From Candidatus Aenigmatarchaeota archaeon (GTDB taxonomy: Archaea > Aenigmatarchaeota > Aenigmatarchaeia > CG10238-14 > SCSR01), in NCBI GenBank assembly GCA_039090665.1, contig JAWCSL010000001.1:1-64000 (forward strand): DNA of 64,000 bases, written 5' to 3'. How positions within the stretch are numbered: position 1 is the stretch's first letter; each line of letters begins with the position of its first letter. Below the pieces are notes generated by a model. The model saw only the letters and a program-made list of their open reading frames with translations. It searched no databases and had not been told where the DNA came from. Below are positions 35,745 to 47,628 of this stretch, in pieces. Made by a program: the position numbers and the translations under genes.

Positions 35745-35851
35745 GCTGGCGTGGATTAGCCTGGCTAAATCGCGGCGCTCATAGCATCTATGAGCTTTGA
35801 TAAAGGATGAAAGAAACGCCGAGATCGCGGGTTCAAATCCCGCCGCCAGCA
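35745..35851 (+). tRNA. tRNA-Met(CAT), probably elongator, with 32-nt intron at 37/38 (35784-35815)
   Basis: acceptor GCTGGCG/CGCCAGC; anticodon arm CGGCG-CTCATA^A-CGCCG; GGTTCAAATCC T-arm. Confidence 0.9.
35784..35815 (+). ncRNA. tRNA-Met intron carrying a box D'/C' guide for C34
   Basis: CTATGAGC pairs with GCTCATAG (35777-84); TTGA and ATGAAAG boxes; N+5 = C34. Confidence 0.75.
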
Positions 35852-38703: not shown

Positions 38704-39603
38704 TACTGAGTTATATTATTTATTTGCTCATGGGTCTTGGCGTTGGGCTTTTGATCAAGTCAAACAAGACATGAGATGAAATAGCCTATTCTGACTCATG
38801 AGATATTGGCCTGAAGTGAAAGAGCTTCAGGTAGGTTGATTGGTGAAACCTAGAGGTAGGGCCCGCCAATTCTGGTTGATCCCGCCAGAGGCCACTGCTA
38901 TCCGGCTTCGACTAAGCCATGCGAGTCGAGAGGGGAAAGCCCTCGGCGCACTGCTCCGTAATACACAGTCAACCTACCCTTAGCTGGGGGATAATCCCGG
39001 GAAACTGGGGCTAATACCCCATAGGTGCTAGGTACTGGAAGGTCCTAGCGCCGAAAGCTCCGGCGGCTAAGGATGGGACTGTGGCCTATCAGCTTGTTGT
39101 GGAGGTAAAGGCTCCACAAGGCGATAACGGGTACGGGCTATGGAAGTAGGAGCCCGGAGATGGACTCTGAGACATGAGTCCAGGTACTACGGTACGCAGC
39201 AGGCGCGAAAACTTCTCAATGCTCGCAAGAGCGAAGAGGGAAGCCGGAGTGCCCTTGCTCTGCAAGGGCTTTTGCGGTCTGAAAACGGGACCGCGAATAA
39301 GGGGTGGGTAAGACGGGTGCCAGCCGCCGCGGTAATACCCGCGCCCCGAGTGGTGGCCACGATTATTGGGCCTAAAGCGTCCGTAGCCGGTCTGGTAAGT
39401 CCTCAGTGAAATCCTCTAGCAAACTAGAGGGCTTGCTGGGGATACTGCCAGACTTGAGACTGGGAGGGGGCAGGGGTACTCCCAGGGTAGGGGTGAAATC
39501 CTGTAATCCTGGGGGGACCACCTGTGGCGAAGGCGCCTGCCTGGAACAGGTCTGACGGTGAGGGACGAAAGCTAGGGGAGCGATCGGGATTAGATACCCC
39601 GGT

Positions 39604-39682
39604 ACACGAGGTTGGGTATCTTCTGATTTAAAGATGAAGAAAAATCCCAACTCAAGCTAGGATTTCCTAACTCGTGCGGGAA
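39604..39682 (+). ncRNA. 16S BHB intron 1 (after Ec U801) with K-loop and antisense elements
   Basis: CCCG/CGGG helix, GTA and AAA bulges; removal restores GATACCCCGGTAGTCC. Confidence 0.9.
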
Positions 39683-40082
39683 AGTCCTAGCCGTAAACGA
39701 TGCCCGCTTGGTGTTGCAAGCTTCTCGGGAGCTTGCAGTGCCGAAGCGTAGGTGTTAAGCGGGCCGCCTGGGGAGTACGCCCGCAAGGGTGAAACTTAAG
39801 GGAATTGGCGGGGGAGCACACAAGGGGTGGGCGTTGCGGTTCAATTGGATTCAACGCCGGAAATCTTACCAGGGCCGACGGCAGGATGAAGGTCAGTCTG
39901 AAGGGCTTACCAGACGAGCCGAGAGGTGGTGCATGGCCATCGTCAGCTCGTACCGTGAGGCGTGCGCTTAAGTGCGTTAACGAGCGAGACCCACACCCCA
40001 TGTTGCTAACTGCTTCTCCGGAAGCAGTGCACTCATGGGGGACCGCTGGCGATAAGCCAGAGGAAGGAGTGGGCGACGGTAG

Positions 40083-40170
40083 ACAGGTAAAAGGCTCAAG
40101 ACCGATTCATGTGAAAAAAAGATGAGCATGAATATCGCCCAGAGCCGTACATGTCTTTTACCTGACCGAA
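40083..40170 (+). ncRNA. 16S BHB intron 2 (after Ec 1197), H/ACA-like hairpin
   Basis: CGGT/ACCG helix, AGA and AAG bulges; removal restores GACGGTAGGTCCGTATG. Confidence 0.9.
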
Positions 40171-40451
40171 GTCCGTATGCCCCGAATGCCCTGGGCCACA
40201 CGCGACGCACAATGCGCGCCACAATGGGATGCGACCCCGAAAGGGGAAGCAAAGCCCCTAAAAGCGCGCTCAGTTCGGATCGAGGGCTGTAACTCGTCCT
40301 CGTGAAGCTGGAATCCCTAGTAAGCGAACGTCATCATCGTTCGCTGAATACGTCCCTGCTCCTTGCACACACTGCCCGTCAAGCCAATCGAGCGGAACTC
40401 CATCGAGGCTTGCGATGAGCAAGTCGAGTTGGAGTTCTGTGAGAGGGGCTA

Positions 40452-40557
40452 ATCTTGGGGGTCCAGAAAAAAATAATATGAAAGAATTGGCTTGACTCTG
40501 ATGTGATGATGAGATGGAGGTGAGTTGATTGCTTGTATGGACCTCCCAAGAGCCTAA
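40452..40557 (+). ncRNA. 16S intron 3 (between Ec A1492/A1493) containing a full box C/D sRNA
   Basis: GGGC/GCCT helix, TAA and AAA bulges; removal restores GGGGCTAAGTCG; C, D', C' and D boxes present. Confidence 0.9.
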
Positions 40558-40832
40558 AGTCGCCACAAGGTAGCCGTACGGGAACGTGCGGCTGGATCAC
40601 CTCCTTACGTGCAACCCTACCTCAGGCACCATAAACAACCCTACCTGAAAGAATTTTCCTTTTTATCAGTACCAAAGTAAAAAAAATTAAGCTCGAATCT
40701 TTACCATTATCCTCAAATTTTTCAATTCTTTTCTTAAACTGTTTTCAAAAAGCTTGTGTTAACTAAAAACTAAAATAAATGAGAGAAAAATAGCTACCGA
40801 GCTTATAAAATAATAAAAATTGGGAAACCATT

Positions 40833-42851
40833 TCAAGCAAGAATAGCATATCTAGCGATCAAAGAAGCAAAGACAGAAGCTGTTAAAGACATGACTGTTA
40901 TCATTGTGTTCAAACTTGGTCCTGCTGTGTCCTTGAAAGGATCACCAACAGTATCACCAACAACAGCAGCCTTATGAGCTTCTGAACCTTTTCCACCAAA
41001 AGCCCCTTCTTCTATCAGCTTCTTAGCATTGTCCCAAGCTCCACCAGAATTTGCCATGAAAAGAGCAAAAATTATTCCTGTGATTATACTTCCTGCTAAA
41101 AAGCCCGCTAAAGCCTCTTTTCCCAAAATGAAGCCAACAAGCAAAGGTGCAGCTATAGCAAGCAAACAAGGAAGCATAAGCTCTCTTAAAGCACCTTTAG
41201 TTGCTATGTCCACGCATTTGGCATAATCAGGTTTAGCTTTTCCTTTCATCAATCCAGGAATTTCTTTAAATTGCCTTCTCACTTCTTCTATCATACGAAA
41301 AGCATTTCTCCCTACTGCCAAAATCAATAAAGCCGAAATCACAGGAGGCATCATGCTACCAATAAAAGTCCCAACTATAACCTTAGGCTCCATCAAGTTT
41401 ATTGAAAACAAACCAGTAGTCAAATCTTTCCTTATTTCAACAACTTCAGCGTAAGCCCCAAGCAAAGCCAAAACTGTTAAAGCTGCAGCACCAATCGCGA
41501 AACCTTTTGTTATTGCTTTTGTTGTATTTCCCAAAGCATCAAGTCTGTCTGTAATTTCCAAGACTTTGCCTTTCAAACCAGCTTGTTCCGCTATTCCTTT
41601 TGCATTATCGACAATTGGACCATAAGCATCAGAAGAAATTATCATTCCAACTATTGCTAACATACCCACTGCTGCTATAGCCACACCATAAAGATTACTT
41701 ACACCGAAAGCCCCTGCAAGATGCCAAGCTGCAAGCATTGCTACACAAATTCCGATGATTGAAGGTACAATGCTCAAGATTCCATAAGAAAAGCCTGAGA
41801 GGATGTTGATAGCAGCTCCTGTTTTTGCAGCTTCTGCTGTTTTTTTCACAGGAGCTTTATCGATTGATGTATAGTAGTTTGTTGTTATTCCTATAATCAT
41901 GCCAGATATAAGTCCAGCTAAAGTTGGTAAGAGAACACCAAAAGTTTGGTTTCCAAGTTCAAGAGCTTGAATCACAAAAAATGTTAAAATTGCAAAAATA
42001 AAACAAGTGGAAAAGGTTCCAACATTCAACGCAAGATTAGGGTTCTTTTTCTTGGCCAAATTGACGAAAATTAAACCAAGAAGAGAGGAAAAAATCCCAG
42101 CAGCTGCTATCAACAAAGGCAAGAAGATAAAGCTTGGAGCAATTGCTTTCCCAATTATCATGGCAGCTATGATGCTTGCTATGTAAGAATCTATCAAGTC
42201 AGCACCCATTCCTGCAACATCACCCACATTATCACCCACATTATCAGCAATAACAGCAGGATTTCTTGGGTCATCTTCAGGAATTTCCATTTCCACTTTT
42301 CCCACCAAATCAGCTCCAATATCTGCTGTTTTAGTGTAAATGCCACCACCAGCTTTTGCAAACAAAGCCAAAGCACTTGCACCAAAGCTGAAACCCAAAA
42401 CAATCTCAGGATCTTGGTAAATTTGGTATAAAATGCTTATGCCAAGCAAAGCTATGCCAACTATCATTAAACCCATGATGGCCCCACCATAAAAACCAAC
42501 AGAAAAAGCTTTTGCTAATCCTTTTCTTGCTGCATTTGTAACCCTAACATTTGTTTTAACTGCTGCCAGCATTCCAAAGTAGCTTGCTATAGCAGTGGAA
42601 AAAGAGCCAAGCAAGTAGGCTAGAGCTATGTCTGGGCTTAAGAAGAGAAAAATAAGAGTTGTCATGATGACAACGAAAATTGCCAAATAAAGATTTTGCC
42701 TCTTCAAGTAAGCTTTTGCTCCCACTTTTATCGCTTCAGAAATTTCTTCCATTTTTTTGGTTCCCGGGCTTTGTTTGCTCACATGGAAATACAAGTAACA
42801 AGCTGTGAAGATCGAAGCTAAGCCTGCGATTGTTGGGATTGAAGCAAACAT
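40833..42851 (-). CDS. hppA: membrane-integral pyrophosphatase (GNTTKA, K+-independent type)
   Basis: [39 protein letters not shown]. Confidence 0.96.
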
Positions 42852-42908
42852 GAAATCACGATATATAAAAATTTTGTTCGATGATAACTTAAATTTTAAA
42901 CCATAAGA

Positions 42909-43320
42909 TTAAGTTAAGTAGTGCCTACATATTTCTAAAACTTTCCTACATTTTTCACACAAAAAATTCTCTATCCTTAAGTTAGAAGGATTGATTGACC
43001 AAAGATATTCGACCAACTCTTCGACCTTACTATAAGGATACATTAAACACTTGTATTTGTAATCTGGCTCATAATGATGAGTCAATCCGAATTTATTTTC
43101 AGCTATTTCATGTAAAAACCCGCAACTCAAAAATCTCTTCTTGATTTCTAAATATTGATTTGAAATAAAGAAAGTAGATAAATAAATTGACAAATAACTT
43201 TCTTTATCGATTTCTAATATGTTAGAAGCTGCCCAGCTCTTAAGGCCTCTCTCAAGAAAGTGATACGGAACTTCAGATCCTTCTGTGTAAAAGAATGGGC
43301 CGTAAAGTAATAATTTTCAT
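42909..43320 (-). pseudogene. hypothetical gene with apparent +1 frameshift just after the ATG
   Basis: ATGAAAATTATTA: removing one A opens a frame (MKLLLYGPFFY...) continuous with ORF 42909-43193. Confidence 0.5.
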
Positions 43321-43347
43321 TCCACACTATTAAGTTATTCTTTTTAT

Positions 43348-43696
43348 TTATGAAAGGTAAAACCAAGTCGAAAATCTCATTAAATTACAGGAGTGTTGAT
43401 CTTCATAAGTTTCTTTTGCCAATTTCAGTATTTTTTCTTTTGAATCTAATCCATATTTTCTAAGGATTTTCCAATTTTCTTCAGTTAGATTTCCAATTGA
43501 ACTTTCTGTAAGCTGAAGAAAAATTTTCTTTCCTTCTTCAGTTTCTTTGCAATTATCGGAAATTCTAATTTCCAATTGGAAAATTATTTTCAAGAAGAGT
43601 TTTCTTCAAAATATCTTCTAGTTCTCCATTTCTTTTTTCCACTAATATATCAAACCTTCTCATATTTTATCTGTAATATTTCTTCTGTCAAATCAT
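43348..43696 (-). pseudogene. hypothetical gene interrupted by single-base insertions
   Basis: frames join as ...YEKV-DILVEKRNGELEDILKK...FPI-EIRISDNCK... after removing single duplicated bases. Confidence 0.45.
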
Positions 43697-43786
43697 TTTT
43701 TTCAAAAAATCTATTTAGAGTAAGAAATTTTAAAAAATATAAAGAATTTAGTTTAAGTTCACAATTATTTAATACCAGCTCAAAAC

Positions 43787-43858
43787 GGGCCGGTAGATCA
43801 ATGGTAGATCGCCTCGCTTGCAACGAGGAGGCTCCGGGTTCAAATCCCGGCCGGTCCA
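43787..43858 (+). tRNA. tRNA-Ala(TGC)
   Basis: GGGCCGG/CCGGTCC acceptor with G3:U70; CCTCG-CTTGCAA-CGAGG. Confidence 0.96.
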
Positions 43859-43885
43859 TCAATGAAATTTTATTAAATTTAAATT

Positions 43886-43900
43886 CGAAATCTTTATAAA
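43886..43900 (+). promoter_or_regulatory. BRE/TATA promoter of the 23S unit
   Basis: CGAAA-TC-TTTATAAA ~25 nt before a GCCGGTG...CATCGGC hairpin. Confidence 0.6.
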
Positions 43901-43973
43901 TACAAAATACAACTTATTTATTTGCCGGTGTCAGTATGTCTGCTTAATTCGAGCATCGGCTTTCTTTATTTTA

Positions 43974-44033
43974 GCGATGAGCTTTGTCTTTCTCTGCTGA
44001 CAAAAAAGATGAAGATGTGGACACCTTGTGAGC
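43974..44033 (+). ncRNA. candidate box C/D sRNA in the 23S leader (A)
   Basis: C ATGAGCT 43977, D' CTGA 43997, C' ATGAAGA 44009, D GTGA 44028; 12-13 nt spacers. Confidence 0.65.
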
Positions 44034-44080
44034 AAGCTGCATGCAACTCCTTATTGAAAGAATAAGGGGTGAAGAGTGGA

Positions 44081-44141
44081 GGTTGATGATAACATTTATT
44101 CGCCTGAAAAAAGATGAAGAGCGAACTGTCTATTTGAAACC
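44081..44141 (+). ncRNA. box C/D sRNA in the 23S leader (B)
   Basis: GGTT/AACC terminal stem; C ATGATAA, D' CTGA, C' ATGAAGA, D TTGA; guides match 16S 39293-301 and 23S 47193-202. Confidence 0.82.
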
Positions 44142-46181
44142 ATAAGATGACACTACCACAGGATCAAGGAGGTCACTAAGGCCTAACAAGCTGACCCCAC
44201 TTGGTGGATAGCTTGGCTTCGGAGCCGAAGAAGTACGTGGCAAGCTGCGATAAGCCTGGGGTAGCCGCATGCAGGCGTAGATCCCAGGATCTATGAATGC
44301 GAATCGCTGGCTTCGGCCAACTCCGAAAGGAGGGGGAACGCGCTGAATTGAAGCATCTTAGTAGGCGCAGGAAAAGAAATCAAATTGAGATGCCGTTAGT
44401 AGGGGCGACCGAAAGCGGCAGAGGGCAAACCGAACTGGTTGGCGAAGAGCCAAACAGGATGTGGAGTTGTAGGACCTGTGTCCTTCCTATCCTAGCCGAC
44501 CTGAAGTCTGCTGGAAAGCAGCGCCAAAGAGGGTGATAGCCCCGTAAGGGAAGGCTAGGAGGAAGATGGCAGGTATCCTGAGTACCATTTCCTGGATGGG
44601 AAGTGGGAAGCTGGGTGAATTAACATCCAACCCTAAATACTCCCGAAGTCCGATAGCGAACTAGTATGGTGACAGAAAGCTGAAAAGCACCGCGAAAGCG
44701 GGGTGAAAAGAGCTTGAAACCAAGTGGGGATAGTCAGACACGGCCCGGAAGGTGCTCCTTCGAATGAAATCCGAAAGGAGAGTAAGAGAAGGAGCTTACA
44801 GGGTCGTGTCGTCCGTGCGGAAACACGGGGCAGGGAGTTTGTCTCAGTGGTGAGGTTAACTTGCTTTCACAAGGTAGCCGGAGCGAAAGCGATTAGCCCG
44901 CAACTGTTCTTTATGGACAGTGAGGGGCAGGGTATGAAAGTGCCTGAAATCACTGGGACAAGACCCGAAGCCAGGCGATCTAACCCTGGGTAAGGCGAAG
45001 TCCCTCGAAAGGGGGATGGAAGCCTGCTACCGGTGCTGAGTTACAAATCGCTCGGGTGACCTGGGGTTAGTGGTGAAAAGCCTAACGAGCCTGGCGATAG
45101 CTGGTTCCTCCCCAAATGCACGTCAGTGCAGCCTGGTCGGAGGTAGGCAATGGGGTAGAGCTACTGATTGGAAGGTCAAGGACCGAAAGGTTCAGCCTTC
45201 CTGTCAAACTCCGAATCCATTGCCACCTGAGAAGACCGGAGTGAGGGTGCTGGGGTAAGCTCGGCACTCGAAAGGGGAACAACCCAGCCTAGGGTTAAGG
45301 TCCCTAAATGCTAGCTAAACGCTGAAGGGTGTCTGAACCCTCAGACAGTAGGGCTGTAGGCTTAGAAGCAGCCATCAGATAATAAGTGCGTAACAGCTTA
45401 CCTACCGAGGGTTCGGGCCCCGAAAATGGAAGGGACTAAGCTAGCTACCGATACCCTAGACCGCGAAAGCGGGGGTAGGGAGGCGTCCTGCATGGGCAGA
45501 AGCCTCTGCGTGAGCAGGGGTGGACCGTGCAGGATTGAAGATCCTGCCGAAAGTAACAGCAAAGTTAGGTGAGAATCCTAACCACCTGAAGCCTAAGGGT
45601 TTGCCAGCAATGTTGGTCAGCTGGCAGTTAGCCGGTCCTAAGGGTGCTCTTAACCGAAGCACTCGAAAGGGAAAGCCGTTAATATTCGGCTGCCATGGGG
45701 ATACGTGCGGCGACGCAAGCCAGTTTTCCGACGCTTCGGGATAGGCAGACGCAAGCTAACTGCCGAAGTGAGCGGAGTCTCTTAATGAGGAGAAGCTCAT
45801 GAAGGCAGGAATGGCTCCTCGTATGAGGAGTTCTGCTGATTCCTGGAGCCCGTGAAAAGGAAAACTGGAAGGATTCCCCATGACCGTACCGAGAACCGAC
45901 ACAGGTAGGCTTGCCGAGAAGGCAAAGGTGTGTTGGGAGAACCCAGCCTAGGGAAATCGGCAAGTTGGCCCCGTATCTTCGGTAGAAGGGGTGCCTGTTC
46001 TCTCGCAAGGGAGAGCAGGTCGCAGTGACAAGGGGGAAGCGACTGTTTAACAAAAACGCTGGAGACCGCAAGTCCGAAAGGATGTGTACGGTCTCTGATG
46101 CCTGCCCAGTGCCGGTGTGTGAAAGCCCGGTTCAACGGGAAGAAGCCCCGGCAAACGGCGGCGGTAACTCTGACCGTCGTA

Positions 46182-46231
46182 ACTCAAGGCGGTCATTTGA
46201 TTTAATGATATTCCGCTGCCTTGGGCGGCAT
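46182..46231 (+). ncRNA. 23S intron (after Ec A1927) with D'/C' guide for H69
   Basis: GTCG/CGGC helix, TAA and ATA bulges; GGCGGTCA antisense to 46171-78. Confidence 0.85.
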
Positions 46232-46360
46232 AAGTAGCGTAATCCCTTGCCGTTTAAATGACGGCCCGTCTGAACGGCTTAACGACTTCCCCACTGTCCT
46301 GGGCTGGGACCCAGTGAACTCGCCTTTCCGGTGAATAGGCCGGAGACCTCCTGTGGGAAA

Positions 46361-46391
<31 letters not shown>

Positions 46392-46545
46392 GTGTTGTGG
46401 TAAGGTTGTGACTGCATAGAGTAGGTAGGACTCGCTATTAGGCTGAGGCTTCGGCCGAAAGCTGAGAGGAAAGTGTAACACTACCCTTTCGCAACCTTAC
46501 CGCTAACTCGAAAGAGGACAGCACCAGATGGGCAGTTCGGCTGGG

Positions 46546-46631
46546 AGTCTAGAAGTCTAAATGAGGAGTCCCTTAAGTTATGATTTTTTATGATTAAGGG
46601 CATACGAACCGAAAGGCTTCTAGACCAGCAA
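46546..46631 (+). ncRNA. 23S P-loop intron (Ec G2252/G2253) containing a full box C/D sRNA targeting 16S
   Basis: GCTG/CAGC helix, GGA and AAG bulges; removal restores GGCTGGGGCGG. Confidence 0.93.
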
Positions 46632-46686
46632 GCGGTACGCCCTCGGTAAAGGATCGAGGGCGCCCAAAGGTCAGCTCATCCGGGTC

Positions 46687-46775
46687 ATGGTAGAGTCTAG
46701 TAAATGATTGGACCGTTCCAGAATGATCTTAATGATTTCTGAGGTAGCTGATGAGAATAGGCTCTACCACCCGCA
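46687..46775 (+). ncRNA. 23S H84 intron (after Ec ~C2306) containing a box C/D sRNA
   Basis: CGGG/CCCG helix, TCA and CAA bulges; removal restores CCGGGTCAGAAATCCGG. Confidence 0.9.
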
Positions 46776-46919
46776 AGAAATCCGGAGTAGAGTGTAAGCG
46801 CAAAAGCTGGCCTGACTGGATTCCGCAAAGCGAGGAATCCAGCCGCGAAAGCGTGGGCTAGCGATACTTCGGTTCCTCTTAATGGGGGCCGGAGGTATCA
46901 GAAAAGCTACCTCGGGGAT

Positions 46920-46973
46920 AAACTAGCTAGGGCTGATTAAATTATTTTTCTTCATATCTAGCTAGTTCCCTAA
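46920..46973 (+). other. 23S hairpin intron after Ec U2449
   Basis: GGGG/CCCT helix, ATA and AAA bulges, 10-bp AACTAGCTAG stem; removal restores GGGGATAA. Confidence 0.88.
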
Positions 46974-47001
46974 AATGGGCCCGTGGCCGGCGAAAGCCCA
47001 C

Positions 47002-47072
47002 TGCTCGAAGGGGTTTTTCGTCCCAAAGATAGCGAGCCTCGGGTTCTGAACTCGAGCCCTTCGCGCGGGTAA
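47002..47072 (+). ncRNA. 23S H89 intron (after Ec ~2477) with antisense elements to the PTC
   Basis: GCCC/GGGT helix, ACT and AAA bulges; removal restores GCCCACATTGACCC. Confidence 0.88.
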
Positions 47073-47628
47073 ATTGACCCGGCGCGTTGGTGCGTCGATG
47101 TTGGCTCCCCCTCTCCTGGCCGTGCAGCAGCGGCCAAGGGTACAGGTGCCCACTGGTTAAAAGGGGACGCTAGCTGAGTTCAGAACGTCGTGAGACAGTT
47201 CGGTCGCTATCTACAGGAGGTGCTGGTCGTCTGACCGGAAGGAAGGGTTAGTACGAAAGGAACACCCTTCCGTGGCCTCTGGTCTACCGGTTGTCCATTT
47301 GGCATCGCCGGGCAGCCAAGCCATACGTGGATAAGAGCTGAATGCATCTAAGCTCGAAACCACCCGGAAAAATAGACGACCACTCTTGCTACTGGTGCGC
47401 AAGCATCGGTGGCAAGACGAAGGCCCCTGTAGACTACAGGTTTGATAGGGGAGAGGTGTAAGCCTCAAGCTTTCGAGCGAGAGGCGAGCCTGCTCCTACT
47501 AAAAGCCTGAGTTGTTAGGCCTTGATAAGCTCCTTGATCCTGTGGTAGTGTGAAAAAATTCTGATTCTCCCAAAAATATATACTAGAGTAGAGAAAACTT
47601 ATTTAATTGTCACTACATAGTAGTTATT

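Follow-up and report, generated by a model that had tools for sequence, protein, structure and literature searches.

The window, that is, the whole stretch of 64,000 nucleotides that was analysed, belongs to an assembly of 620 kb in 15 contigs, and the public runs holding the stretch are mainly hot-spring metagenomes. It carries a ribosomal RNA operon whose 16S gene was located on the plus strand at 38869-40605 by its match to the archaeal small-subunit model of Rfam (RF01959, 1297.3 bits, model positions 1-1478). Being 1737 nt long against the 1478 positions of the model, this gene shows three large insertions in the alignment, the third of them in a region where 137 nt stand in place of the 34 of the model. 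The 23S gene lies at 44179-47522 (Rfam) and, with 3344 nt against 2987 model positions, it probably contains insertions too. The gap of approximately 3.5 kb between both genes (40606-44178) includes a tRNA at 43787-43858, and a match to a loose C/D-like pattern was seen immediately 5′ of the 23S gene (44069-44137). Another tRNA match, at 35745-35851, spans 107 nt against a 71-position model, so that an intron is probable there.

The exon junction of the third insertion was taken from intron-less relatives, and canonical BHB geometry was then tested around it under a strict definition (a 4-bp central helix, a 3-nt bulge on each strand with the cut after base 2, and an inner helix). Of 212800 position pairs taken arbitrarily in this 16S, only 29 satisfy it. 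The earlier note had placed an intron at 40452..40557, between the adenines A1492 and A1493, and a canonical BHB was indeed found exactly at the homology-defined junction GGGGCTA/AGTCG, with the following parts:

38869..40605, plus strand: host 16S rRNA gene with three BHB introns (Rfam RF01959 and alignment)
40452..40557, plus strand: BHB intron of 106 nt between A1492 and A1493; its removal joins AGAGGGGCTA to AGTCGCCACA, a junction identical in intron-less relatives
40446..40449, plus strand: 5′ strand of the BHB central helix, GGGC, exon positions 1487-1490, 4/4 pairs with 40552-55
40450..40452, plus strand: 5′ three-base bulge TAA, cut after base 2, identical in 9/9 distinct introns of this junction (site A below)
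40453..40465, plus strand: 5′ strand of the inner intron helix, 9 consecutive pairs from the bulge (13 pairs and one bulged base in the MFE fold)
40538..40551, plus strand: 3′ strand of the inner intron helix (fold, BHB test and compensatory changes in relatives)
40552..40555, plus strand: 3′ strand of the BHB central helix, GCCT, at the intron 3′ end, pairing with 40446-49
40556..40558, plus strand: 3′ three-base bulge AAA, cut after base 2 (BHB geometry test)
Intron termini: 5′ ATCTTGG..., 3′ ...GAGCCTAA

The inner intron helix is given by the MFE fold of the naked RNA, and in relatives its positions show CG/TA and AT/GC exchanges at the insertion sites named A, B and C below. The naked-RNA MFE of 40366-40610 shows the pairs of mature helix 44 together with an internal guide hairpin, and neither a guide-target duplex nor the 4-bp BHB helix; as predictions for naked RNA, these folds neither support nor exclude cis pairing inside an RNP. 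The splicing endonuclease EndA (94.8 bits, 188 aa) and RtcB (547.2 bits) are encoded in the same genome, and copies of the third intron, 87-91% identical, exist in three further assemblies from its genus.

The other two 16S introns, at 39604-39682 (79 nt) and 40083-40170 (88 nt), fit the canonical BHB as well as the third. The first of them reads GGGTATCTT-CTGA followed by a 6-nt loop and GATGAAG, which resembles a D′/C′ K-loop; its 8-nt guide is complementary to AGATACCC in the 5′ exon next to it, relatives keep this intron, and its versions in the f5 lineage have an extra second guide, GTATCTAATCC against GGATTAGATAC. The second is built on a 12-bp inner helix and has a hairpin with GTGA and GATGAG motifs. 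Given the guide-like halves of the first intron against its own flanks, more than one rRNA intron here may be a guide of this kind.

Among the public reads, six RNA runs hold 11-20% of the words of the stretch and one DNA run holds 87%. The bins covering 40394-40511 had almost no cover in three RNA runs and in the DNA run alike, so they are uninformative on the third intron. Read joints 39603>39683 and 40082>40171 match the boundaries of the first two introns and, because they also occur in the DNA run, were ascribed to intron-less relatives; the joint 40386>40557 is present in DNA as well. In two RNA runs (X16 and X17), contigs join the 16S 3′ end (40605) to the 5′ end (38867), as expected for circular pre-16S intermediates, which possibly belong to relatives at 90% likeness or more.

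Inside the third intron, the earlier note had read a box C/D guide RNA with box C, D′ CTGA, C′ ATGATGA and D TTGA and two guides directed at A1408 and C1535. All coordinates of this layout check, both complementarities are exact, and the fifth base upstream of D′ lies opposite 40381 and that upstream of D opposite 40600. The elements and their predicted targets are:

40478..40484, plus strand: box C, ATGAAAG, degenerate (family consensus RTGA-n-A-R; aligned to box C of Rfam C/D families)
40485..40497, plus strand: D′ guide spacer, 13 nt, of which 40486-96 pairs with 16S 1405-1415 (11/11) and covaries with its target
40498..40501, plus strand: box D′, CTGA, demanded by every retrieval pattern
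40502..40505, plus strand: D′-C′ loop, 4 nt
40506..40512, plus strand: box C′, ATGATGA (the family-conserved form TGATGAG is 40507-13)
40513..40524, plus strand: D guide spacer, 12 nt, of which 40516-23 pairs with the anti-Shine-Dalgarno (8/8)
40525..40528, plus strand: box D, TTGA, as in most relatives (CTGA in N. equitans and in loci L017 and L041, TTAA/TAAA in the f5 lineage)
40378..40388, plus strand: target 1, helix 44 5′ strand, with 40381 = A1408 as the predicted 2′-O-methylation site
40597..40604, plus strand: target 2, anti-Shine-Dalgarno, with 40600 = C1535 as the predicted site

The E. coli numbering was anchored on RNase fragments given in PMC5389701 (UCAAG at 1406-1410, AGC at 1507-1509, UGGAU at 1528-1532 and AC at 1534-1535), which yields 40381 = A1408, 40600 = C1535, 40451 = A1492 and 40558 = A1493. 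The first guide, ATTGGCTTGAC (40486-96), is the reverse complement of 40378-88, and the second, GGAGGTGA (40516-23), that of TCACCTCC (40597-604), each being the sole match of at least 8 nt in the spliced 16S and 23S. When guides were shuffled, 34 out of 20000 reached an 11-mer against these two spliced rRNAs and 3993 out of 20000 reached an 8-mer, so that the D guide is not significant alone and draws its support from conservation, GGAGGTGA being present in 25 of 28 real cassettes found with a pattern that leaves it free.

Spacers of 13 and 12 nt, matches of 11 and 8 bp and a target at the fifth base fit what is required of an archaeal box C/D sRNA, as does, for the internal motif, a D′ CTGA separated from C′ by 4 nt and aligned to the boxes of Rfam sR18. 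The terminal boxes ATGAAAG and TTGA are both degenerate and keep the UGA and GA cores needed for sheared pairs, and in this copy they are not directly bordered by a short stem. Position 6 of box C is A and position 1 of box D is U here, against G and C in N. equitans, a single event that could represent a compensated pair. The intron gives no Rfam match at gathering score, the best sub-threshold one being sR18 with 24 bits (E 6.6e-4) against 45; the further sub-threshold matches (sR20, sR33, snoPyro_CD, sR11 and sR2) all belong to C/D families, and no sR13 family is among the Rfam matches to the intron. Fibrillarin (289.8 bits), Nop5 (215.3) and L7Ae (62.4) are encoded in the same genome; the L7Ae match, at C11:28733-29011 in this genome, was reported with one in-match TGA. 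The cassette is present here in one copy, and in a genome-wide scan with a regular expression for other dual-guide C/D RNAs it was the only convincing one among 6 matches.

The strict patterns used for the retrieval of relatives contain guide and box motifs themselves (CTGA at D′ and GGAGGTGA), so the uniformity of the retrieved cassettes is partly built in. A looser pattern, made of the D′ half and the C′ box and leaving GGAGGTGA unconstrained, was run on all 117 genomes of the order and matched 55 of them, against 1 for the reversed control; 28 of the 30 loci returned are real cassettes. The three real cassettes without an intact GGAGGTGA differ from it by one change each, with 7 pairs or more left, and the loop and linker bases next to it vary freely. 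The cassette is single-copy in 53 of the 55 positive genomes, the exceptions being one with two 16S genes and one whose count includes a chance match. Moreover, changes in guide and target go together: where the 16S reads GTCAAACC, with A at 1410, a T stands opposite that A in 5/5 distinct cassettes, a G-U intermediate occurs in 3 cassettes, and A opposite C in none. A relative found by BLAST (G008) has CCGA at D′ and a deviant C′, yet a paired change brings the match of its guide with the 16S of that genome to 12 nt. On the grounds of this conservation and covariation, the guide-target pairing is judged to be under selection.

A counterpart of the cassette exists in sR13 of N. equitans, a 54-nt C/D sRNA with 45100 RNA-seq reads and a predicted Am at CGTCAmAGCC, as given in PMC3491384; a guide for the A1408 equivalent was predicted in N. 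equitans and S. acidocaldarius according to Dennis 2015 (PMC4644070). In the 16S rRNA of N. equitans, Am1408, Am1409 and Am1534 were measured by MALDI-MS and RiboMeth-seq (Seistrup 2017, PMC5389701), and the same source holds the two guides of sR13 responsible for 1408 and 1534 and proposes that this sRNA retards the folding of helices 44/45, replacing the RsmA/Dim1 checkpoint, which is absent in N. equitans.

With regard to this checkpoint, the matches to RrnaAD (PF00398) in the genome of the window are partial only, one falling on a GCD14-type tRNA methyltransferase and a second on a protein judged by eye to be of PCMT type, and the best match in 60 relatives reached 36.8 bits over the SAM-binding part only. 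With a threshold of E <= 1e-15 for a full-length RrnaAD, 89 of 201 sampled genomes of the phylum have one, near-universally in several other families (e.g., 17/17, 8/8 and 7/7), and none of the 66 genomes sampled from the window's order does, this genome included. Within the order, 117 distinct genomes were searched in all and no full-length RsmA/Dim1 was found; for MAGs, such an absence means no more than not found. The looser cassette pattern matches 37 of these 66 order genomes and 5 of the 135 others, counts in which relatives are not independent. Most other families of the class have full-length RsmA/Dim1. A strict link between the cassette and the loss of RsmA was rejected, as a genome of another family (G175) has both a full-length RrnaAD (E 6.8e-45) and a cassette intron at site C.

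Altogether, the geometry of boxes and spacers, the homology with sR13, the covariation, the BHB geometry, the encoded machinery and the copy number make it highly probable that the 106-nt BHB intron of this 16S encodes a dual-guide box C/D sRNA like sR13 of N. equitans. What would happen in vivo (transcription, splicing, methylation, action in cis or in trans, circularisation) we infer from sequence. The intron would be transcribed as part of the pre-16S rRNA, and L7Ae, Nop5 and fibrillarin would assemble on its C/D and C′/D′ motifs. The D′ guide, paired with 16S 1405-1415, would place A1408 for 2′-O-methylation, while the D guide, an exact Shine-Dalgarno look-alike, would pair with the 3′-terminal CACCUCC, placing C1535 (or A1534) and occluding the anti-Shine-Dalgarno meanwhile. 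EndA would cut both 3-nt bulges and RtcB would join the exons into ...GGGGCUA-AGUCG..., thus restoring A1492-A1493, and RtcB would probably also circularise the intron into a stable sRNA. In the mature rRNA, the exon bases of the BHB central helix (1487-1490) pair with 1410-1413, which lie inside the D′ target; the guide duplex and the BHB can therefore coexist, and each of them would take the place of mature helix 44. Such compatibility, which follows from the sequence, fits a cis-ordered pathway and is not evidence that it occurs. That the D guide may mask the anti-Shine-Dalgarno until maturation is essentially the hypothesis published for sR13 in PMC5389701, and it is favoured by the lineages keeping GGAGGTGA without a D box.

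The places where the cassette lives bear on whether its position matters. A scan of species-representative genomes (one per species) gave 49 loci, most of them in records of Aenigmatarchaeota and one in N. equitans, two loci labelled as Hadarchaeum and as a bacterium being probably binning errors. A metagenome scan gave 118 loci, 105 of them distinct: 75 at 16S sites (45 at C, 15 at A and 15 at B), 15 in tRNA-Ser genes, 10 in partial or variant 16S contexts and 5 unclassified ones that, by eye, resemble tRNA-Ser genes with extra introns; no free-standing cassette was found among the metagenome loci. When the copies embedded in 16S were aligned to an intron-less relative, four sites were defined:

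Site A: GGGGCTA/AGTCG, E. coli 1492/1493, strict BHB test passed by 9/9
Site B: GTCGCC/ACAAGG, E. coli 1499/1500, strict BHB test passed by 10/10
Site C: GCCGTA/CGGGAAC, E. coli 1513/1514, strict BHB test passed by 7/18
Site D: GGGAAC/GTGCGG, E. coli 1520/1521, strict BHB test passed by 1/1

The strict test is thus passed by 27 of 38 distinct cassette introns of relatives, and among the 11 failures, all at site C, the inspected ones either mispair once in the 4-bp helix or have a short inner helix. The four sites fall within 1492-1521, between both targets, and the 75 classified metagenome 16S loci and the genome loci include no cassette at any other place in 16S or 23S. Sites vary within genera, genus g6 having B, C and D, g11 having A and B, and g21 having C and tRNA-Ser, bearing in mind that 16S contigs of MAGs are often mis-binned. 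Where Aenigmatarchaeota copies have no 16S flank, their host is a tRNA-Ser(UGA)-like gene with the cassette in its anticodon-loop intron, as recognised by eye and by a regular expression; ARAGORN called no tRNA around the cassette in 10 loci lacking a 16S flank. Within Aenigmatarchaeota, a genome with the cassette nearly always has just one copy of it, and every classified locus is intronic.

Several observations were made beside these loci. In one genome (G024, locus L021), a site-B intron of 619 nt, a length that could code for a protein, occurs in the same 16S as a site-C cassette intron. Directly 5′ of cassette-bearing tRNA-Ser genes (L047, L051, L052, L060, L072 and L075), a C/D-like half of the form GACTCAAGGTCTGA...GATGA(T)GA was seen, whose guide complements the anticodon loop and intron start of the tRNA itself (CCTTGAGTC). 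In three metagenome tRNA-Ser-like genes (L179, L204 and L215), the T-arm is apparently split by an extra insertion within GGTTCAAA...ATCCC.

The tRNA-Ser introns and the N. equitans gene show that placement in cis is not required for the guide to function, and they raise the possibility that the 16S intron is a pure delivery vehicle, which would supply promoter, stoichiometry and EndA/RtcB processing to a guide acting only in trans after excision, its position in the decoding site having no functional meaning. In N. equitans this cassette functions as a gene of its own (PMC3491384), trans action is obligatory for the copies in tRNA-Ser(UGA) introns of other Aenigmatarchaeota, and the guide in the Haloferax tRNA-Trp intron is reported as trans-acting or intramolecular in PMC7994747. 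However, a position-neutral vehicle would not be expected to use four 16S sites that are all confined between the two targets, and the BHB exon bases 1487-1490 would be free only while the guide holds 1405-1415. We regard the vehicle as a serious contender, if one that we lean against.

Another proposal, which we put forward only tentatively, is a rather unlikely extension of the sR13-type reading: the intron would be an obligatory, self-timed licensing device of the small subunit that moves by means of its own guides. Under this proposal, the sRNP would hold 1405-1415 and the anti-Shine-Dalgarno, and the freed 1487-1490 would pair with the intron 3′ end to form the BHB; only then would EndA and RtcB remove the intron, letting A1492/A1493 and helix 44 form. 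Methylation, unmasking of the anti-Shine-Dalgarno and completion of the decoding site would be coupled, and an RNA step would stand in for the RsmA/Dim1 checkpoint. As for mobility, guide pairing would tether the excised intron to the 3′ minor domain, which would explain reinsertion at four sites within 30 nt that vary even inside single genera.

A different account, which we consider improbable, dispenses with methylation, at least for the D guide, and sees in the cassette an antisense chaperone or mask whose arms hold the helix-44 5′ strand and the anti-Shine-Dalgarno during assembly, fibrillarin-dependent methylation at the anti-Shine-Dalgarno being secondary or lost. It is in line with the f5/g36 lineage, where box D is TTAA or TAAA, without GA, and yet GGAGGTGA is kept in 6 distinct cassettes, with the G008 cassette, whose guides remain perfect and even extended beside its aberrant D′ and C′, with the degenerate terminal C box of the present copy, and with the retarded folding already proposed for sR13 (PMC5389701). 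Nevertheless, both arms direct measured methylations in N. equitans according to that same report, the C′/D′ motif serving the A1408 guide is canonical here (the uniformity of CTGA in relatives being by construction), and the N+5 register onto A1408 is constant in all pattern-retrieved cassettes.

An insertion between A1492 and A1493 is expected to disable decoding. That it is simply unspliced, a pseudogene or an assembly artefact with accidental 16S complementarity, as the MAG origin might suggest, is extremely improbable in view of this expected effect, its recurrence in three further assemblies of the genus, the 49 loci of species-representative genomes and 118 of metagenomes, a remaining 16S that scores as intact, and an 11-mer match so seldom reached by shuffled guides.

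The reading as an sR13-type guide gene, if true, makes this the first case found of an rRNA intron encoding a methylation guide for its own host rRNA, linking archaeal BHB rRNA introns, tRNA-intron guides and eukaryotic intronic snoRNAs, and giving an rRNA intron a function beyond selfish persistence. With an intron at the most sensitive spot of the ribosome, splicing would become the compulsory last step towards a decoding-competent subunit. This would also be a second lineage where an sR13-type guide coincides with the loss of RsmA/Dim1, by which the hypothesis of an RNA checkpoint becomes comparative and testable. Moreover, a single-copy cassette hopping among four 16S sites and a tRNA intron offers a natural data set on the movement of BHB introns and guides, and introns inside or beside universal 16S primer and probe sites are a practical concern.

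The closest known system is sR13 itself, with the same architecture and both guides in the same order. The D′ guide core GGCTTGAC before CTGA, in the A1408 register, the D core GGAGGTGA and the C′ TGATGAG are shared, and RsmA/Dim1 is undetected in both organisms. On the other hand, sR13 has a gene of its own between NEQ365 and NEQ366, whereas here the RNA is an rRNA intron; its terminal boxes are ATGATGT and CTGA instead of ATGAAAG and TTGA, and the D box is one base nearer to the guide here, so that C1535 is predicted in contrast to the A1534 measured in N. equitans (PMC5389701). The RsmA/Dim1 checkpoint acts on the same 3′ minor domain of helices 44/45, but by means of a protein base-methyltransferase without sequence relation to the cassette.

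Guides are also known inside tRNA introns: in Haloferax and Pyrococcus, the intron of pre-tRNA-Trp contains a box C/D sRNA (Clouet d'Orval 2001, cited in PMC7994747), and N. equitans has a C/D-like intron in tRNA-Met (PMC3491384). As in those cases, the BHB intron would be a methylation guide for its own host RNA, released by EndA; the difference lies in that their host and targets are tRNAs, while here the host is the 16S, whose decoding site the intron splits, with one target about 70 nt before the intron and the other about 40 nt after it in the same rRNA. In the open-access literature and bioRxiv, we found no description of an rRNA intron with a guide RNA in it, nor of any rRNA intron from Aenigmatarchaeota. 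The archaeal rRNA introns of Thermoproteales and Desulfurococcales (PMC4496867, PMC3608112) resemble the present one in being bounded by a BHB and lying in conserved rRNA regions, but in the available parts of these papers they are described as empty or as carriers of homing endonucleases, and none as a guide RNA. A wider likeness is found with eukaryotic intron-encoded snoRNAs, where a methylation guide also rides in an intron and is made by splicing, the hosts there being spliceosomal introns of pre-mRNAs or lncRNAs, whereas here the host is the target rRNA and the processing falls to a protein endonuclease and a ligase. The guide and both targets were thus already known from N. equitans sR13, and it is their housing in an rRNA intron that looks new.
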